The position numbers and the translations under genes were made by a program. From IMG/VR virus record IMGVR_UViG_2651869750_000012: 7,129 nucleotides of DNA. The stretch is one strand, 5' to 3'. Below the pieces are notes generated by a model, which did no database searches, had not been told where the DNA came from, and saw only the letters and a list, made by a program, of their open reading frames with translations. Positions 1,111-6,977 of the stretch are shown piece by piece (position 1 is the first letter of the stretch; each line of letters starts with the position of its first letter). The stretch is from a virus (lineage: Duplodnaviria > Heunggongvirae > Uroviricota > Caudoviricetes).

Positions 1111-1604
1111 TAAGCCCCCACGTAATTCCCTGACAGATACCACTCATCACCCGATACAGCGCGCTTGCTGCTTTTCCGTAAACACTGCTCACGACGCGCC
1201 AGAAAATTGTTTCGTTCTGGCTGGGAGTGGCTTTCACGGAATGCCGCCATCCACACCGTTGCAGCACGACGGTATAGGCCCCTGGACTCCAGTTCTTCCG
1301 CCTGGCGGGTCAGGCACAAAATCACCCGGGGATCGTTAGTGCCGACATAGAAATTGCGCACAGGTCTGGTTTCACGAACTGGTTGTAGTTCCGGCTCCTG
1401 CGCTCTCTCAGTCAGGCGTGGGAAATGTCTGCGTGTATCTCCTTCACAACGGTGAGCCACACGCCCACTCTGACGTAACTTGCTTGCTGACTGCAGAACG
1501 CGCTGCCGTGAGTAACCTGCAAAAGCATCCGCAATGTCTCCGGAAGTACACCCCGGATGGGCTTCAATGAATTTCTGAACGTCATTCAAAAGACTCATGA
1601 TCAC
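1110..1604 (-). CDS. yfdN: YfdN-like protein: N-terminal winged-helix-like region plus C-terminal PerC-like domain (putative transcriptional regulator)
   Basis: 164-aa ORF. The C-terminal AEELESRGLYRRAATVW resembles the PerC/Pch signature as I recall it (A-E-x-L-E-x-K/R-G-L/F-W/Y-R-R-A-A-x-x-W). Length matches my recollection of K-12 YfdN (164 aa); the gene symbol is from memory, not a search. Track start is GTG 1604 (GTGA overlap with the O-like stop); an ATG at 1598 preceded by AGGGGG is an equally plausible start. Confidence 0.65.
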   Translation of the reverse strand: MIMSLLNDVQKFIEAHPGCTSGDIADAFAGYSRQRVLQSASKLRQSGRVAHRCEGDTRRHFPRLTERAQEPELQPVRETRPVRNFYVGTNDPRVILCLTRQAEELESRGLYRRAATVWMAAFRESHSQPERNNFLARREQCLRKSSKRAVSGDEWYLSGNYVGA

Positions 1605-2419
1605 CCCCTGAATCCTGCCGGGATCTGGCTGTAGTCCACGTTGTCGTAACTGGCTTTGAAGTACGGGTCCTCGCGTCTGGCTGCAGATATCGCAGGAACT
1701 TCCCAGGATTCTTCGAAATGACGATCCGGACCAAAGAACGTGACAGCCTGTTTCACAAATTGTGTGCCGCTGTTACCCATCGCAGATACCCAGCCCGCGT
1801 AGCGTTTCACACCTTCCAGCATGGTTTCGGGGTTTACCCCCTCGTTCAAACGGGCTTTCCAGGCTTTGAAGGCTGCAGATTTTGAATTGCCACCAGCACG
1901 TTTGGGATATGCCAGCCATGCCTGCTCAAACTCCGGAGAGTATTCCGGTCGGTTTGAACGAACTCGCACGGACTCATCAACTGATGCACCAACAGCTATT
2001 GGTTCATTGACTGGTTCTTTGACTGGTTCAAAAGAGTGACTGGTTCTGGGTGAATCTCCTGCACTACCCCCTGGTGCAACTCCTGCACTACCTGGTGAAT
2101 TTGCTGCACCAGATAGTGAATTATTTGCACTACCCCCTAGTGAATCTCCTGCACCATCCAGATGAAGGAGATAGATATTACTTGAGTTACCTTTTTCACC
2201 TTTCCGGGTGACTTTTTTTACCAGCCCGGACTCACAGAGGGCCGCAATATGATTCATCACAGAACGTTTGCTAATCTCGCACTGATCAGCGATATGCTGA
2301 TAGCTGGGCCAGCACTCACCCTGATCGCTGGCATTATCAGCCAGCTTGATCAGAACCAGTTTTCGCAATGGATTACCCACTCGAATTTTCATCGCTTTAA
2401 CCATCAGCTCCATACTCAT
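1601..2419 (-). CDS. Lambda O-like replication initiation protein (N-terminal HTH iteron-binding-like domain, Gly/Ser/Ala-rich linker, C-terminal YdaU/DnaT-like domain)
   Basis: 272-aa ORF. N-terminus (LRKLVLIKLADNASDQGECWPSYQHIADQCEISKRSVMNHIAALCESGLVKK) has the winged-helix pattern of lambda O N-terminal domains. C-terminus (AWLAYPKRAGGNSKSAAFKAWKARL...QFVKQAVTFFGPDRHFEESW) matches what I recall of the YdaU/DUF1376-type replication domain. ATG at 2419 is preceded by GGAGG at 6 nt and overlaps the upstream stop as ATGA. The middle of the gene carries iteron-like DNA repeats. Confidence 0.8.
   Translation of the reverse strand: MSMELMVKAMKIRVGNPLRKLVLIKLADNASDQGECWPSYQHIADQCEISKRSVMNHIAALCESGLVKKVTRKGEKGNSSNIYLLHLDGAGDSLGGSANNSLSGAANSPGSAGVAPGGSAGDSPRTSHSFEPVKEPVNEPIAVGASVDESVRVRSNRPEYSPEFEQAWLAYPKRAGGNSKSAAFKAWKARLNEGVNPETMLEGVKRYAGWVSAMGNSGTQFVKQAVTFFGPDRHFEESWEVPAISAARREDPYFKASYDNVDYSQIPAGFRG
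2008..2160. repeat. Iteron-like direct repeats inside the O-like gene (candidate phage replication origin)
   Basis: Three copies of TGACTGGTTC at about 2008-2017, 2020-2029 and 2037-2046. Then five imperfect 20-25-bp direct repeats with consensus about tGGTGAATcTcCTGCACtACCcc at about 2047-2071, 2072-2092, 2093-2110, 2115-2137 and 2138-2157, followed by a more AT-rich stretch at 2161-2220. The position in the inter-domain linker of the initiator mirrors ori-lambda inside gene O. Confidence 0.45.
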
Positions 2420-2652: not shown

Positions 2653-3481
2653 GACGATGCCCTCCGCTGATATTCAGGAGACGGTGAATATGAAAATTAG
2701 CCTTATCCGCCAGACGAATACGTTCAGCCTGCAAGTTAAGAAGGGTTTCTACCAAAACCTGATGCGCCTGGGGATCCGAAAGAGTTACCTTGCGCAGAGC
2801 ACGTAGTGCAGTTGTTACATAACTGAGTTTATGTAAGTCTTCATCATTCAGACGAGTGAGGGCTGGGACAGTAGCCATGATGGCAGCCTCCTTGATCGGT
2901 GAAATACTTCCACCACCGGAAACGCCAATTTCGCTGGTGGTGAACTGAACGGGGTTGGCGTAACCGGTGATCAAGGAAACCGGCGCATCTTTCGATGCCC
3001 CCGCCCAGCCCACCATAACTTTGATGTGAGCAAATGCGGACGATAAAAAAGACGCTGGCGCGTCATATATCGCCTTGATCAATTCCAGGACGCCAATCCC
3101 GGCACCCGCTTTATAAGGTGCCTGAACAGTGTAACGTCCCGGAATGGCAGAATCAATGTGCTGGTGGTCCTTCACACTCAACAAAATCACGCCTGAATTT
3201 CCACAAAGGACTAAAGCACTCATGCGGGTAGTCTTTGCGAAGATAGATAACGCGCTGTGTTTCTGGCTCCCAACGAATAACATGAACATAAAGTCCTCTT
3301 CCGTCACGAAACCAGCGGTTAAGTTCCTGCACAACTCGCCCCCCACAGTCAGGTAAAGTTCTCTGTGGTTACTTACAGCCAGGTGATTTGGTAATCTGCA
3401 TTCATGCCGTAACAACAGGTGTTCAGCGACGCTGACCACCAGCTGTTGCGACAAACGGTTATTTGCCGTTAAACTGTTCAT
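2645..3481 (-). CDS. Hypothetical 278-aa protein of unknown function (predicted alpha/beta, Gly-rich loops AGAGIG and GVSGGGS)
   Basis: Long ORF in the operon sense strand; ATG at 3481..3479 overlaps the CII-like stop as ATGA. It fits none of the lambdoid replication or regulatory families I know, and lacks Walker A, PP-loop, NPPY and HEPN motifs. The alternating hydrophobic strand/helix pattern with glycine-rich loops suggests a Rossmann-like fold, but that is inference only. Confidence 0.7.
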   Translation of the reverse strand: MNSLTANNRLSQQLVVSVAEHLLLRHECRLPNHLAVSNHRELYLTVGGELCRNLTAGFVTEEDFMFMLFVGSQKHSALSIFAKTTRMSALVLCGNSGVILLSVKDHQHIDSAIPGRYTVQAPYKAGAGIGVLELIKAIYDAPASFLSSAFAHIKVMVGWAGASKDAPVSLITGYANPVQFTTSEIGVSGGGSISPIKEAAIMATVPALTRLNDEDLHKLSYVTTALRALRKVTLSDPQAHQVLVETLLNLQAERIRLADKANFHIHRLLNISGGHRHA

Positions 3482-4273: not shown

Positions 4274-4363
4274 ACAATATGTACCTCCGATATACATATT
4301 ACATGATTGAGATGAACCTTCAAGATACTTGTACCCTATCGGTACAAAGGTTTTAATTTCGTT
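4274..4363. promoter_or_regulatory. cro-cI intergenic control region: divergent promoters (PR/PRM analogues) with operator-like 19-bp palindromes
   Basis: 7-5-7 palindromes with half-site ATGTAYC: 4279-4297 ATGTACC-TCCGA-TATACAT; 4329-4347 TTGTACC-CTATC-GGTACAA (perfect); weaker 4312-4330 ATGAACC-TTCAA-GATACTT. Candidate leftward promoter: -35 TTGAAG (reverse complement of 4318-4323), 16-nt spacer, -10 TAATAT (reverse complement of 4296-4301). Candidate rightward promoter: -35 TTGTAC (4329-4334), 17-nt spacer, -10 TTTAAT (4352-4357) ending 6 nt before the cI ATG, which would make cI mRNA leaderless or nearly so, as at lambda PRM. Promoter calls are by eye. Confidence 0.5.
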
Positions 4364-5038
4364 ATGAAAACAGTCCATGACATCCGGCGGTCTAACGCCA
4401 GAAAACTGAGAGATGGTGTTGGCGGGAATTCTTCCTTTGCCACCATGATTGATCGCGAGCCAACCCAGACCAGCAGGTTTATGGGAGATGGTGCTACTAA
4501 AAATATCGGTGACAGCATGGCACGGCACATCGAAAAATGTTTCGACCTGCCTGTCGGATGGCTTGATCAAGAACACCAGACAACAAACATCACAAAAAAA
4601 CCTGATGTTTCAATTACTAACAAACAAATAACGTTAGTCCCTGTCATATCATGGGTACAGGCCGGAGCATGGAAAGAAGTTGGCTATTCTGAGGTTGATT
4701 TGAGCACAGCAGAAACTTATCCCTGCCCTGTACCCTGTGGCGAAATGACTTATATCTTGCGGGTGATTGGTGATTCAATGATTGATGAGTACCGCCCGGG
4801 AGACATGATTTTTGTAGATCCTGAAGTCCCTGCCTGCCACGGTGACGACGTTATTGCATTGATGCACGATACAGGCGAAACCACCTTTAAGCGGTTGATA
4901 GAAGATGGAACACAGCGTTACCTCAAAGCATTAAACCCAAACTGGCCTGAACCTTACATTAAGATCAACGGTAATTGCTCTATAATTGGTACAGTAATTT
5001 TCTCAGGAAAACCAAGAAGATACAAAATAAAGGCCTAA
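4364..5038 (+). CDS. cI: Prophage cI repressor (N-terminal HTH, C-terminal LexA-like S24 autopeptidase)
   Basis: 224 aa. The C-terminal domain aligns closely with my recollection of P22 C2: ISWVQAG-AW vs ISWVSAG-QW (Ala100-Gly101 cleavage site), VIGDSM (Ser138 nucleophile), FVDPEV, TFKRL (Lys176), LNPNWPEPYIKINGNCSIIG vs LNPQYPMIEINGNCKIIG. Confidence 0.9.
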   Translation: MKTVHDIRRSNARKLRDGVGGNSSFATMIDREPTQTSRFMGDGATKNIGDSMARHIEKCFDLPVGWLDQEHQTTNITKKPDVSITNKQITLVPVISWVQAGAWKEVGYSEVDLSTAETYPCPVPCGEMTYILRVIGDSMIDEYRPGDMIFVDPEVPACHGDDVIALMHDTGETTFKRLIEDGTQRYLKALNPNWPEPYIKINGNCSIIGTVIFSGKPRRYKIKA

Positions 5039-5049
5039 TCAATATTTAT

Positions 5050-5072
5050 AACCTGCTTCGGCAGGTTTTTTT
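5050..5072 (+). terminator. Rho-independent terminator downstream of cI
   Basis: Stem AACCTGC (5050-5056), loop TTCG, stem GCAGGTT (5061-5067), then a T-run (5066-5072), 12 nt after the cI stop codon. Confidence 0.7.
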
Positions 5073-5076
5073 ATAC

Positions 5077-5121
5077 TTGACAATGTACCCTTGAGATACA
5101 TAATGTATCTAAAAGAAACAT
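5077..5121 (+). promoter_or_regulatory. Strong sigma70-like promoter (early-left, PL analogue) overlapped by two tandem operator-like 19-bp palindromes
   Basis: -35 TTGACA (5077-5082), 16-nt spacer, -10 CATAAT (5099-5104). Operator-like sites 5083-5101 ATGTACC-CTTGA-GATACAT and 5103-5121 ATGTATC-TAAAA-GAAACAT share the half-site seen in the cro-cI intergenic operators. An 8-1-8 palindrome AGATACAT-A-ATGTATCT (5094-5110) bridges the two sites. Confidence 0.55.
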
Positions 5122-5541
5122 GTCACAGGCAAGATTAAACAAAATTTGGTTGTAACACGGCGTATGGCACATGCGTCGTTAGCGGTCTGGGGACGTTAAA
5201 GGGGACAATCCACTCCTTGCTCGGGCAAACAAACCAGGTAGCCGGAATGTGCAAGTCAATGATGATGCTGATAAGACGCCTAACCAGCGTGGCGGTTCGG
5301 TTTGACACCTGGGAAGAGACCAGGGTGCAACGATGAGGGCATTTATGGAACCGCGACAAAGTGTGGTGCCGTAACTGGCTAAGTGCTCTCAGCGTTGTGG
5401 TGAATGCGCAGGCTGATGCGCGAAAGACATTGCAGCTAATGCGGAAAAGAGCTGTTCGGCGGGGCAATTAAACGCCCGTGAGAGTCTGAAATAACCGCAA
5501 GCCGGAGATCAGCACCGGTCACCACAACAGCCACTGCTTTG

Positions 5542-5588
5542 GCGGTACCAGTTTGTACACTTGCTTCCGGCTGGTACCGCTCTTTTTA
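5542..5588 (+). terminator. Intrinsic terminator inside the early-left leader, upstream of the YfdP-like gene
   Basis: Perfect 10-bp GC-rich stem GCGGTACCAG (5542-5551) / CTGGTACCGC (5571-5580), 19-nt loop, followed by TCTTTTTA (5581-5588). Confidence 0.55.
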
Positions 5589-5589
5589 C

Positions 5590-5674
5590 AAAACAGAGAA
5601 GAGCATCACCGGACGACGGGCTCATAACCCAATCCATCCGGGCGGCTGCCACCGCAGGTGTTCTTCTCTGTTTT
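5590..5674 (+). other. Long-range 15-bp inverted repeat (putative RNA stem enclosing a ~55-nt structured loop) in the leader just upstream of the YfdP-like ribosome-binding site
   Basis: AAAACAGAGAAGAGC (5590-5604) is complementary to GTTCTTCTCTGTTTT (5660-5674) with a single G-U position; the enclosed loop contains shorter GC stems (for example GCGG 5642-5645 / CCGC 5652-5655). Confidence 0.4.
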
Positions 5675-5724
5675 GTGGAGAAACCAACCGACCTTGCAGG
5701 GTCGATATGATGAGGAGCAGCAAA

Positions 5725-6087
5725 ATGGCTAGCGAACGCAGTACTGATGTGCAGGCATTTATCGGGGAGCTGGACGGCGGCGTATTTGAAACCAAAATCG
5801 GCGCAGTTCTCAGTGAGGTCGCTTCCGGTGTGATGAACACGAAAACCAAAGGGAAGGTCTCACTCAATCTGGAAATCGAACCGTTTGATGAGAACCGTGT
5901 GAAAATCAAACACAAACTCTCATATGTTCGCCCAACTAACCGCGGGAAAATTTCCGAAGAAGACACCACCGAAACGCCGATGTATGTCAATCGCGGTGGT
6001 CGCCTGACTATTCTGCAGGAAGACCAGGGACAATTACTGACTCTTGCCGGTGAACCTGACGGAAAACTCCGCGCAGCAGGTCATTAA
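5725..6087 (+). CDS. yfdP: YfdP-like prophage protein of unknown function (120 aa)
   Basis: The track ORF 5539..6087 begins at a TTG and runs through the terminator hairpin. The internal ATG at 5725 is preceded by GAGGAG (5712-5717) at 7-nt spacing and gives 120 aa, matching my recollection of K-12 YfdP length. Gene symbol is from memory, unverified. Confidence 0.65.
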   Translation: MASERSTDVQAFIGELDGGVFETKIGAVLSEVASGVMNTKTKGKVSLNLEIEPFDENRVKIKHKLSYVRPTNRGKISEEDTTETPMYVNRGGRLTILQEDQGQLLTLAGEPDGKLRAAGH

Positions 6088-6152: not shown

Positions 6153-6977
6153 ATGTCTCAGAACTTAGACGCAACCGCAATTAATCAAATCCATGCCCTT
6201 ATTTCTGCTCAGGGTGTTAATGAAATTATCAGTAAGATTGGTGCCGATGCTGTGGCATTGCCTGAGAATTTCCGCATTCATGATCTGGAAAAATTTAATT
6301 TAAATCGCTTCCGTTTCCGTGGTGCACTTTCCACTGCCAGCATCGATGATTTTACCCGTTATTCTAAAGATCTTGCAGATGAAGGCACCCGCTGCTTTAT
6401 CGATGCCGATAATATGCGTGCCGTCAGTGTGCTTAACCTGGGTACTATTGATGAGCCAGGTCACGCAGATAACACTGCCACTCTCAAACTGAAAAAGACA
6501 GCACCGTTCTCTGCTCTGTTGTCTGTTAACGGCGAGCGTAACTCCCAGAAGTCACTGGCAGAATGGATCGAAGACTGGGCCGACTACCTTGTGGGCTTTG
6601 ATGCTAATGGTGACGCCATTCAAGCAACAAAAGCGGCTGCGGCAGTCCGTAAAATCACGATTGAAGCAAACCAGACCGCTGATTTTGAAGATAATGACTT
6701 CAGCGGCAAACGCTCCCTGATGGAGTCTGTCGAAGCGAAGACCAAAGACATTATGCCAGTGGCATTTGAATTTAAATGCGTTCCGTTTGAAGGTCTGAAA
6801 GAACGTCCGTTTAAATTACGCCTCAGCATTATCACTGGCGATCGTCCTGTACTGGTTCTGCGCATTATTCAGCTGGAAGCGGTGCAGGAAGAAATGGCTA
6901 ACGAATTTCGTGATCTGCTTGTTGAGAAATTCAAAGACAGCAAAGTAGAAACCTTTATTGGTACTTTCACCGCCTGA
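6153..6977 (+). CDS. yfdQ: YfdQ-like prophage protein of unknown function (274 aa; DUF2303-type as I recall)
   Basis: Clean 274-aa ORF with GTGAGGA 6 nt upstream of the ATG; the length equals what I recall for K-12 YfdQ. I recognise no catalytic motif. Gene symbol is from memory, unverified. Confidence 0.75.

Follow-up and report, generated by a model that had tools for sequence, protein, structure and literature searches.

A conserved phage leader RNA, apparently undescribed, with an arm resembling the anticodon stem-loop of initiator tRNA

The window analysed here is a stretch of 7,129 nucleotides (nt) from IMG/VR virus record IMGVR_UViG_2651869750_000012 (Caudoviricetes). Between its repressor gene, ymfK, and the downstream gene yfdP, a terminator-like hairpin is followed immediately by a long inverted repeat, and a sequence-only reading of the window had drawn attention to both. 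By comparing this region with related phages and prophages, we find that the hairpin and the repeat are the 5' two-thirds of a conserved early-left leader module of SfV/ST64B/cdtI/mEp460-like temperate phages. What the earlier reading overlooked is that the helix formed by the repeat is the base of a three-way-junction RNA, one arm of which copies the anticodon stem-loop of the initiator tRNA (tRNA-fMet). This Y-shaped RNA, referred to below as the Y-RNA, is conserved in structure, strand and position, its helices covary, and the tip of one arm is identical in sequence to tRNA-fMet. It is apparently an undescribed, widespread phage leader RNA with an initiator-tRNA-like arm. No family of Rfam 15 covers it, the whole-window scan being empty over 5040-5730 at E<=1 and the scan of 5100-5730 giving only chance matches at E<=10, and no description was found, by sequence or by concept, in the searchable literature, subscription-only papers lying outside reach.

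The core of the structure is a long helix. The purine-rich arm AAAACAGAGAAGAGC (5590-5604) pairs with the pyrimidine-rich arm GTTCTTCTCTGTTTT (5660-5674) with one G.U pair (G5603.U5661), at exactly the coordinates where a 15-bp repeat with a single G-U had been proposed, and this complementarity is the core of a helix of 20 base pairs (bp), P1 (5588-5607/5657-5676). The helix grows to 25 bp without a gap (5583-5681) if residues 5583-5587 of the U-tract pair with GGAGA at 5677-5681. The suggestion that such a complementarity exceeds chance is borne out, since 100 dinucleotide-preserving shuffles of the full 7,129 nt gave longest ungapped stems (loop of up to 80 nt) of only 11-19 bp, compared to 25 bp in the real sequence. 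In addition, the 93 nt of 5586-5678 fold at a free energy (dG) of -47.5 kcal/mol (z = -7.1), and none of 200 shuffles folded as well. The predicted fold is a Y-shaped RNA of approximately 90 nt (5588-5676, + strand), in which P1 closes a three-way junction with single A residues at the junction. Between the 5' arm of P1 (5588-5607) and its 3' arm (5657-5676), both of which are supported by folding and covariation, lie the P2 arm (5609-5641), with the outer stem CCGGA/UCCGG, the internal loops CGAC/AAUCCA and the tip GGG-CUCAUAA-CCC, and the P3 hairpin GCGG-CUGCCA-CCGC (5642-5655), which in relatives is between 14 and about 40 nt long. The GGAGA motif (5677-5681) that follows is nearly invariant in the family, and alignment A2 shows no change at its last G and A. 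The roughly 20 bp or more of nearly uninterrupted double-stranded RNA that characterizes RNase III sites is present (20 bp, or 25 bp with the U.G and U-A pairs of the U-tract).

The conservation of this structure was assessed in two sets of relatives. The first comprised 53 distinct family members obtained by scanning IMG/VR with the P2 tip; because this set had been collected through the tip itself, a second was ascertained through the 3' arm only (100 loci, 61 distinct sequences). Standard pairs fill 95.8% of the pair cells in the first set, compared to 42-50% with slid partners, and 94.5% in the second, compared to 33-51% in the slid controls. In the first set, changes on both sides occur at 10 of the 34 pairs (92 cells), for example C-G in 29 and A-U in 19 cases, G-C in 35 and C-G in 18, or A-U in 43 and G-C in 7; similarly, the outer stem of P2 covaries, one of its pairs being GC in 31 sequences and AU in 16. 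P1 is fixed at 20 bp, with zero indels in the first alignment. Compensatory changes in both alignments thus support the long complementarity as a genuine RNA helix of the + strand. G.U pairs are frequent (at one pair, U.G is found in 46 of the 53 first-set sequences), and a covariance model of the element gives 122 bits for the + strand, compared to 45 for the - strand. As a G.U pair would read as a C.A mismatch on the opposite strand, these pairs and the asymmetry in score imply that the + strand RNA is what is conserved. The element measures 93, 94, 95, 96, 112, 114, 117 or 118 nt among relatives. Similarity searches showed that the mosaic boundaries are sharp: 5539-5760 is common to the window, SfV, SfIV and others; 5539-5701, which holds the terminator and the Y-RNA without yfdP, is common to SfII and SKA5; and 5582-5688, the Y-RNA alone, is approximately 85% identical in Salmonella ST64B and Klebsiella phages.

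The most distinctive part of the Y-RNA is the tip of P2, which consists of GGG (5618-5620), CUCAUAA (5621-5627) and CCC (5628-5630). The sequence CGGGCUCAUAACCC (5617-5630) equals E. coli tRNA-fMet from C28 to C41 at 14 of 14 nt, the tRNA sequence having been checked against all 5426 E. coli genomes and K-12 metY. The copied stretch contains the CAU anticodon loop and the row of three G-C pairs characteristic of initiator tRNAs, and the predicted hairpin tip reproduces the anticodon stem-loop of one particular tRNA, as is expected of an anticodon-arm mimic. The element itself is not a tRNA gene: ARAGORN detected no tRNA in the window, there is no cloverleaf, and Rfam gave no tRNA match even at E<=10. 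The metY-rimP leader of E. coli, which carries tRNA-fMet, terminators and an RNase III site, was considered as a counterpart and rejected, as nothing in it is alike beyond the 14-nt anticodon-arm identity.

Among relatives found through the 3' arm, the exact 18-mer GGGCUCAU(A/U)ACCCAAUCC is kept in 58 of 90 distinct variants. Changes of the anticodon (CCU, CAC) are rare in this set, CAU is retained in 173 of the 176 distinct family sequences, and one lineage carries a compensatory change of G30-C40 to U-A. Furthermore, the core GAC/GAA-GGG-CUCAUAA-CCC-AAUCC recurs within differing closing stems in a Pantoea genome, in Raoultella, in more IMG/VR contigs and in a metagenome-assembled genome (MAG) of the Acidobacteriaceae. 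Judged from these comparisons, resemblance to the tRNA prevails and is under clear constraint, though it is not absolute. In the Acidobacteriaceae MAG (2540-2628, - strand), the inner and outer stems around the 23-nt core CGACGGGCUCAUAACCCAAUCCG differ from those of the phage element and are fully complementary. This unit lies in a prophage-like region other than the usual one, with glucosaminidase and DNA methylase genes nearby, and scores 38 bits with the model. In a Gammaproteobacteria MAG (DTU037, approximately 3694-3711 of contig L175), a tRNA-fMet-like sequence, ...GUCGGGCUCAUAACCC|AAUCCUGCUCCCGCAACCA, is followed by a terminator; this gene is without a variable loop and the 5' half of the T arm, and the internal deletion yields exactly the CCC|AAUCC junction of the phage element. 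A deletion of this type in a tRNA-fMet gene is a possible route of origin for the tip. Pairing between the P2 loop and start codons was also considered and rejected: many starts of the YfdP type contain UAUGAG, which complements the loop, whereas those of the RdgC type and the rest do not, and loop variants show no matching partner change at the start codons.

Directly upstream of the Y-RNA, GCGGTACCAG (5542-5551) is perfectly complementary to CTGGTACCGC (5571-5580), and the 10-bp GC stem with a U-tract that the sequence-only reading had reported at this place is real. With G.U pairs the stem reaches 13 bp (5541-5553/5569-5581), including seven G-C pairs, and encloses a loop of 15 nt (19 nt for the perfect 10-bp stem); the hairpin has a dG of -21.2 kcal/mol (z = -4.3, 200 shuffles). 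It is followed by TCTTTTT (5581-5587), and the U-tract, UCUUUUU in the RNA, directly abuts the long helix, whereas on the - strand the hairpin is followed by AAAGCAG and no U-tract. The inverted-repeat list, folding and the relatives all point to an intrinsic-terminator-like hairpin on the + strand at 5541-5587. The hairpin is GC-rich and precedes a U-tract, and it is kept as a structure rather than as a sequence: a perfect stem of 7 bp or more and a run of five or more T abutting P1 are found in 82 of the 88 distinct upstream contexts, and compensatory changes maintain the stem through 26 different 3' arms, which include the types GGTACCGCC, GGATGCCGC, GACGCCGC, TGTTACCGCCC, GGTGGGCA and TGGATAACCGCC. 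This implies that the hairpin is conserved as a structure joined to the Y-RNA, with GGTACC as one solution among several, and the proposal of an intrinsic terminator looks right on these comparisons. A simple terminator scan missed the hairpin because it takes only loops of 3-8 nt, the typical range for intrinsic terminators; loops in relatives span 5-47 nt. The oversized loops of some relatives (e.g., L133, L174, L099 and L119) have a U-rich-CCC motif, as in UUUCCCGU, UUACCCGU and GUACCCUU, and those of the ST64B/L129 type have an insert of 40-47 nt with a Shine-Dalgarno-like GGAGG, then ATG or GTG.

The surroundings of the element indicate where it is transcribed. The window is 100% identical to a prophage of E. 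coli FDAARGOS_1059 (similarity search), and its gene order is RusA, methyltransferase, PerC-like, replication protein, ash, YmfL, YmfT, YmfK, yfdP and yfdQ. YmfT is Cro-like and lies on the - strand; YmfK is the cI-like repressor (4364-5038, + strand); yfdP occupies 5725-6087, the PGAP start in the 100% identical record mapping to 5725, and yfdQ occupies 6153-6977. The 686 nt that separate the repressor gene from yfdP have no gene annotated by PGAP. After the repressor gene come its strong terminator (5050-5075, + strand; stem AACCTGC/GCAGGTT, then a T-run) and a PL-like early-left promoter, TTGACA-16-CATAAT (5077-5104, + strand; 11 of 12 positions in the promoter scan), both of which are annotated in phage Ayreon. 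The operator consensus TGTAY-N7-RTACA has four sites in the window, a number equalled by one of 200 shuffles; the first pair (4280-4296 and 4330-4346) lies between the Cro-like and cI-like genes, and the second (5084-5100 and 5104-5120) lies over the PL-like promoter (5077-5121). To judge from the sequence, this set of terminator, promoter and operators after the repressor gene is the lambdoid PL/OL layout read rightwards. The hairpin and helix are therefore placed in the leader of the early-left operon, approximately 430-570 nt from the predicted start, and the PL-like promoter is the presumed source of the leader transcript.

The same placement is seen in relatives. In all five phages examined (Ayreon, mEp460, ST64B, phiNP and SfII), the element lies 500-1000 nt 3' of the repressor gene on the same strand. 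The window and each related locus have a single copy. The gene that comes first after the element differs among phages and may be YfdP-like, RdgC (PF04381), a YfbR/YfdR-like deoxynucleotidase or an excisionase (Xis), and the order 3' of helix P1 is the near-invariant GGAGA, a short hairpin of variable stem, and the ribosome-binding site. In the window this small hairpin is CGACCU-UGCA-GGGUCG (5689-5704, + strand), between the Y-RNA and the ribosome-binding site of yfdP; its stem varies in relatives (GGCGG/CCGCC, GCGCC/GGCGU, GGCGGCC/GGCCGCC, GCCCC/GGGGC), and its loop is mostly UGCAG, GGCAG or GUGCAGA. The Shine-Dalgarno sequence GAGGAG (5712-5717, + strand) precedes the yfdP start codon ATG (5725-5727). 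In the predicted fold of 5530-5730, GCCACUGCUUU (5530-5541, just 5' of the terminator) would pair with the yfdP Shine-Dalgarno and start region (5716-5729). The first part of the leader is weakly structured (5111-5392, z = -0.9 by folding) and contains an open reading frame (ORF) of 39 codons with a TTG start (5217-5336, + strand), annotated as a hypothetical protein in phage Ayreon.

The element occurs in 2493 of 5426 complete E. coli genomes (about 46%), with up to 5 copies per genome, and the annotated feature at the E. coli matches listed is always yfdP or a hypothetical protein. When one genome per species was scanned with the 18-mer, 60 matches were obtained, of which 22 are family members from about a dozen genera; these 22 records are all from Enterobacterales except one labelled Chryseobacterium. 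The remaining matches mostly look like chance (an estimated 70 or so chance matches are expected in 596 Gb), and no tRNA gene is among them. K-12 is without the element in its decayed CPS-53 prophage, where direct repeats of the CAGATTTTGACGGGT/CAGATTTTGATGCGT type occupy its place upstream of yfdP (5400-5520 of that locus).

Another finding is that the Y-RNA is one of a set of modular, tRNA-associated phage RNAs. Just 5' of the terminator lies module A, a structured RNA of about 137 nt (5393-5529, + strand), closed by a 10-bp perfect inverted repeat, GUUGUGGUGA/UCACCACAAC (5394-5403/5519-5528), and containing the internal hairpins GCGCAGGCUGAUGCGC and CCGGAGAUCAGCACCGG. It matches no Rfam family, and its closing stem shows a compensatory change among relatives. 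Module A has copies of approximately 97% identity that directly follow the tRNA-Asn and tRNA-Thr genes in phage P1 and the P1-like phage RCS47 and that directly precede two tRNA genes in phage IME207, and a shortened form occurs in an Ackermannviridae Klebsiella phage; the small hairpin at 5689-5704 may correspond to module A's first hairpin. In RCS47 (L295), the Y-RNA model matches same-strand units interleaved with A-like units, at 1630-1716, 1836-1950 (tip ACGGGGUCAUAUCCCAAUCU) and 2119-2197 (tip ACGGGUUCAUAUCCCAAUCU), the tips being of the GGG-NUCAUAN-CCC type, and a further long-stem unit (1420-1510) encloses the tRNA T-arm-like sequence GGGUUCGAAUCCC. All four units are predicted to fold as long-stem hairpins, with z values of -4 to -8. 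The array extends over 1420-2330 (+ strand) in RCS47 and 69502-70207 in phage P1 (AF234172), after the tRNA-Asn and tRNA-Thr genes and antisense to the annotated plp and upl genes; where it ends, at about 2290-2325 of L295, a GC-rich stem followed by TTTTTT is read as a putative terminator. A match to the Rfam family STnc100 at RCS47 2194-2314 (38 bits) falls below the cut-off of 47. Tandem units after tRNA genes would be the layout expected of processed stable RNAs, like members of a tRNA operon.

The structure of the Y-RNA is solid, and its function is inferred from it. The reading that we prefer, tentatively and with a little under half of our confidence, combines an attenuating terminator, an RNase III-type helix and a mimic of the tRNA-fMet anticodon arm presented to a host factor. 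Transcripts would start at the predicted promoter (5077-5104), and the terminator at 5541-5587 would stop a fraction of them, as in attenuation. In the read-through RNA, the bases right after the U-tract would fold into the Y-RNA of about 90 nt (5588-5676). P1 may then act as an RNase III-type processing stalk, comparable to the hairpin of the lambda N leader and the stalks that flank rRNA; RNase III cuts double-stranded RNA of about the length of this helix (20-25 bp). Cleavage would separate the leader from the mRNA of the first gene, and the copied anticodon arm would be set free, or at the least exposed, on an RNA of about 50-70 nt. In the arrays of phage P1, such stalks would be the obvious way to excise the units from a long precursor. 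Finally, the arm may engage a host reader of the initiator tRNA anticodon arm, for which a VapC-type anticodon nuclease, methionyl-tRNA synthetase (MetRS) or the P site of the 30S subunit are candidates. VapC-type toxins encoded by enteric plasmids and chromosomes cleave tRNA-fMet within this loop, and the PIN toxins from plasmids of Shigella, Salmonella, E. coli and Klebsiella do so between A38 and C39, the identity elements for MetRS are C34, A35 and U36, and the 30S P site reads the three G-C pairs of the initiator tRNA.

On the other hand, several observations weigh against this reading. The tip columns are 70-100% conserved, like the rest of P2 and not above their neighbours, and 32 of the 90 distinct variants found through the 3' arm deviate within the 18-mer, mostly at 1-2 positions (C32U, U33C, A37C or A37U, or changes in the flanking AAUCC). 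U33C would abolish a tRNA-type U-turn, and that some lineages have lost U33 speaks against such a turn being strictly required. The identity with tRNA-fMet may be either selected mimicry or descent from a fragment of a tRNA-fMet gene. At the centre of the helix, the pair G5598-C5666 (columns 16/111 of A2) is mismatched in 29 of 53 first-set and all 61 second-set variants; from the alignments, this appears to be a conserved internal mismatch of one large sub-lineage. The 15-nt terminator loop exceeds that of typical intrinsic terminators. Lastly, the absence of the element from K-12 leaves the standard E. coli datasets silent.

The explanation that competes best, though we consider it unlikely, is an ordinary leader, in which a partial terminator and a hairpin serve RNase III cleavage, mRNA stability or translation control, and the tRNA-fMet identity is a functionless relic. 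In the lambda N leader, too, the hairpin lies in the interval from PL to the first gene, and the tolerance of the tip towards U33C, A37C/U and C32U, together with a conservation no higher than that of its neighbours, suits a relic. So does the internal deletion in the tRNA-fMet-like gene of L175, which gives exactly CCC|AAUCC, and so do the units of the phage P1 array, which hold other pieces of tRNA such as the T-arm-like sequence in RCS47. However, the GGG/CCC pairs and CAU have persisted while P1, the lower stem of P2, P3, the terminator stem and both flanks have turned over, and the same core is found in unrelated scaffolds and in the phage P1 units.

A narrower version of the mimic, which we regard as doubtful, is that the Y-RNA is an early phage decoy of the initiator tRNA anticodon arm, binding or absorbing a host or plasmid factor, such as VapC, that attacks or reads tRNA-fMet. 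The decoy would be made early from PL and, in P1-like phages, from a multi-copy array co-transcribed with phage tRNAs, and it would protect translation initiation during phage growth. It would be a logical counter-measure because a phage cannot easily swap the initiator tRNA for a resistant variant. A terminator 5' of the supposed decoy, which would limit its yield, counts against this proposal and the preferred reading alike. In a preprint on the OLD tRNase of phage P2, Thr(UGU) is among the tRNA targets and the initiator tRNA is never mentioned. The cis-acting determinant beside a prophage repressor to which a paper on Gifsy-1 and RtcR points could not be connected to the element.

It is improbable that the P2 tip is a translational operator of the thrS type, at which a MetRS-like binder of the anticodon arm tunes the translation of the first early-left gene. 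C34, A35 and U36 are the best-conserved positions of the loop, and the tolerated loss of U33 fits a partner that splays the loop rather than a U-turn. However, the tip (5618-5630) lies approximately 95 nt 5' of the ATG at 5725 and does not overlap or adjoin the ribosome-binding site, phages differ both in the first gene and in the ribosome-binding site that serves it, and the complementarity between loop and start codon is unconserved.

We consider it very unlikely that the element is a processive antitermination signal of the put or nut type, which would modify RNA polymerase for read-through. Its position is equivalent to that of nutL, a small hairpin follows it, the terminator after yfdQ in Ayreon would need read-through, and CGCUCUU (5578-5584) has 7 of the 8 bases of the lambda boxA sequence. 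The leader holds no N-like ORF, which favours antitermination in general and speaks against a nut site in particular. Yet the element lies 3' of its own terminator and not 5' of it, the boxA-like bases occur in this lineage only and are lost in relatives (GUCCUU, GCCCUU, GCACUU), and there is no 15-nt hairpin of the boxB type. In addition, the covariance model detects no further copy that could be a counterpart of putR in the 4 kb of rightward operon that the window includes, and finds nothing in HK022 at 22.0-34.0 kb, where put sites are expected, their position being unconfirmed by annotation.

A role at the DNA level, as a cI/Cro site, a recombinase core mimicking an attB in a tRNA anticodon loop, or a mobile inverted-repeat element, has little probability. 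The sequence-only reading was right that GGTACC and TGTACA are present in the arms and loop of the terminator stem; the echo of operator half-sites for cI and Cro that it saw in them does not hold. They do look like operator halves, but the operator consensus matches only at the four sites at 4280, 4330, 5084 and 5104 and nowhere in the hairpin, and the stems of relatives switch from GGTACC to the GGCATC, GGCGTC, GGTAAC or GCCCATC types. The repressor of the heteroimmune phage mEp460 shares the protease domain only, yet the whole element is 99% identical there. GGG-N7-CCC has the shape of the tyrosine-recombinase cores found in tRNA genes, and the sharp mosaic boundaries would suit a mobile unit; however, the G.U pairs and the strand asymmetry of the model point to selection on RNA, and the copies are not scattered, the E. 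coli matches listed all lying in the same prophage context.

The weakest candidate, a protein of 49 aa encoded by an ORF through the element (5561-5710) that is open in the window and has a similar counterpart in ST64B, is hardly credible, since length differences of 1, 2, 19 and 25 nt among relatives break the frame, the substitutions are compensatory for the helix and PGAP annotates no gene. A small upstream ORF after the helix (GTG/ATG-GAG-AAA) was likewise rejected, its length being unconserved (4 to >40 codons); pairing with the U-tract accounts for its G/A change just as well.

Elsewhere in the window, on the - strand at 2933-3020, 3045-3121 and 3082-3134, Rfam matches above threshold were found for C4 antisense RNA (82 bits) and the Hfq-binding RNA isrK (64 bits). 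The target motif c4-a1b1 is also present among the matches in 2933-3134, below threshold. These matches suggest that the rightward operon may carry an antisense control module like immI of P1/P7.

Returning to the preferred reading of a processed leader with an anticodon-arm mimic, the closest analogue of the element in position and form would be the RNase III hairpin of the lambda N leader, and in its copied tRNA part the thrS operator. Like the former, as well as the sites in T7 early RNA and the rRNA stalks, it is a long, near-perfect helix of about two turns, and it lies in the PL transcript before the first gene. Unlike the lambda N leader, to which it has no sequence relation, it has a three-way junction with a tRNA-like arm and a terminator fused to its 5' side, and there is no nutL or N. 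Similar to the thrS operator and the tRNA-like element of HIV-1, it is a hairpin in an mRNA leader that reproduces the anticodon stem-loop of one tRNA; in contrast to thrS, it is the initiator tRNA that is copied, at a long distance from the ribosome-binding site, and the downstream gene varies and is not a synthetase. The HK022 put RNAs are likewise protein-independent structured RNAs in the early leader of a lambdoid phage without N, but the Y-RNA has a single copy where they have two, it follows a terminator and lies approximately 480 nt from the promoter, and no similarity to them was found in the HK022 stretch scanned.

Further parallels concern RNAs related to tRNA. As an early tRNA-related phage RNA, the element recalls the T5 tRNAs that act against PARIS and retron Eco7, and the RNA anti-CRISPRs, and its P1-like versions share an operon with phage tRNA genes. 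Unlike phage tRNAs, it has no cloverleaf, acceptor end or CCA, and an anti-defence role would be pure inference. It shares with bacterial Y RNAs (YrlA) a long basal stem joined to a tRNA-like module, but it has no Rfam YrlA match and mimics the anticodon arm rather than the T, D and acceptor region. The T4 stable RNAs C and D are also stable-RNA-like units beside phage tRNA genes; the covariance model of the element gave no match to T4 rnaC or rnaD.

If confirmed, the Y-RNA would be an unannotated RNA family present in nearly half of the sequenced E. coli strains, and also in prophages of Shigella, Salmonella, Klebsiella, Citrobacter, Enterobacter and Erwinia. It holds a key regulatory position, that of the early-left operon, in lambdoid phages without an N protein. 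The arrays antisense to plp and upl suggest that part of the textbook genome of phage P1 encodes stable RNAs instead of, or besides, those proteins, and they recall the old unsolved question of the stable RNAs in the T4 tRNA cluster. An initiator-tRNA mimic would, if confirmed, join the short list of tRNA-like viral RNAs and would link the development of temperate phages with the factors that read or destroy the initiator tRNA.

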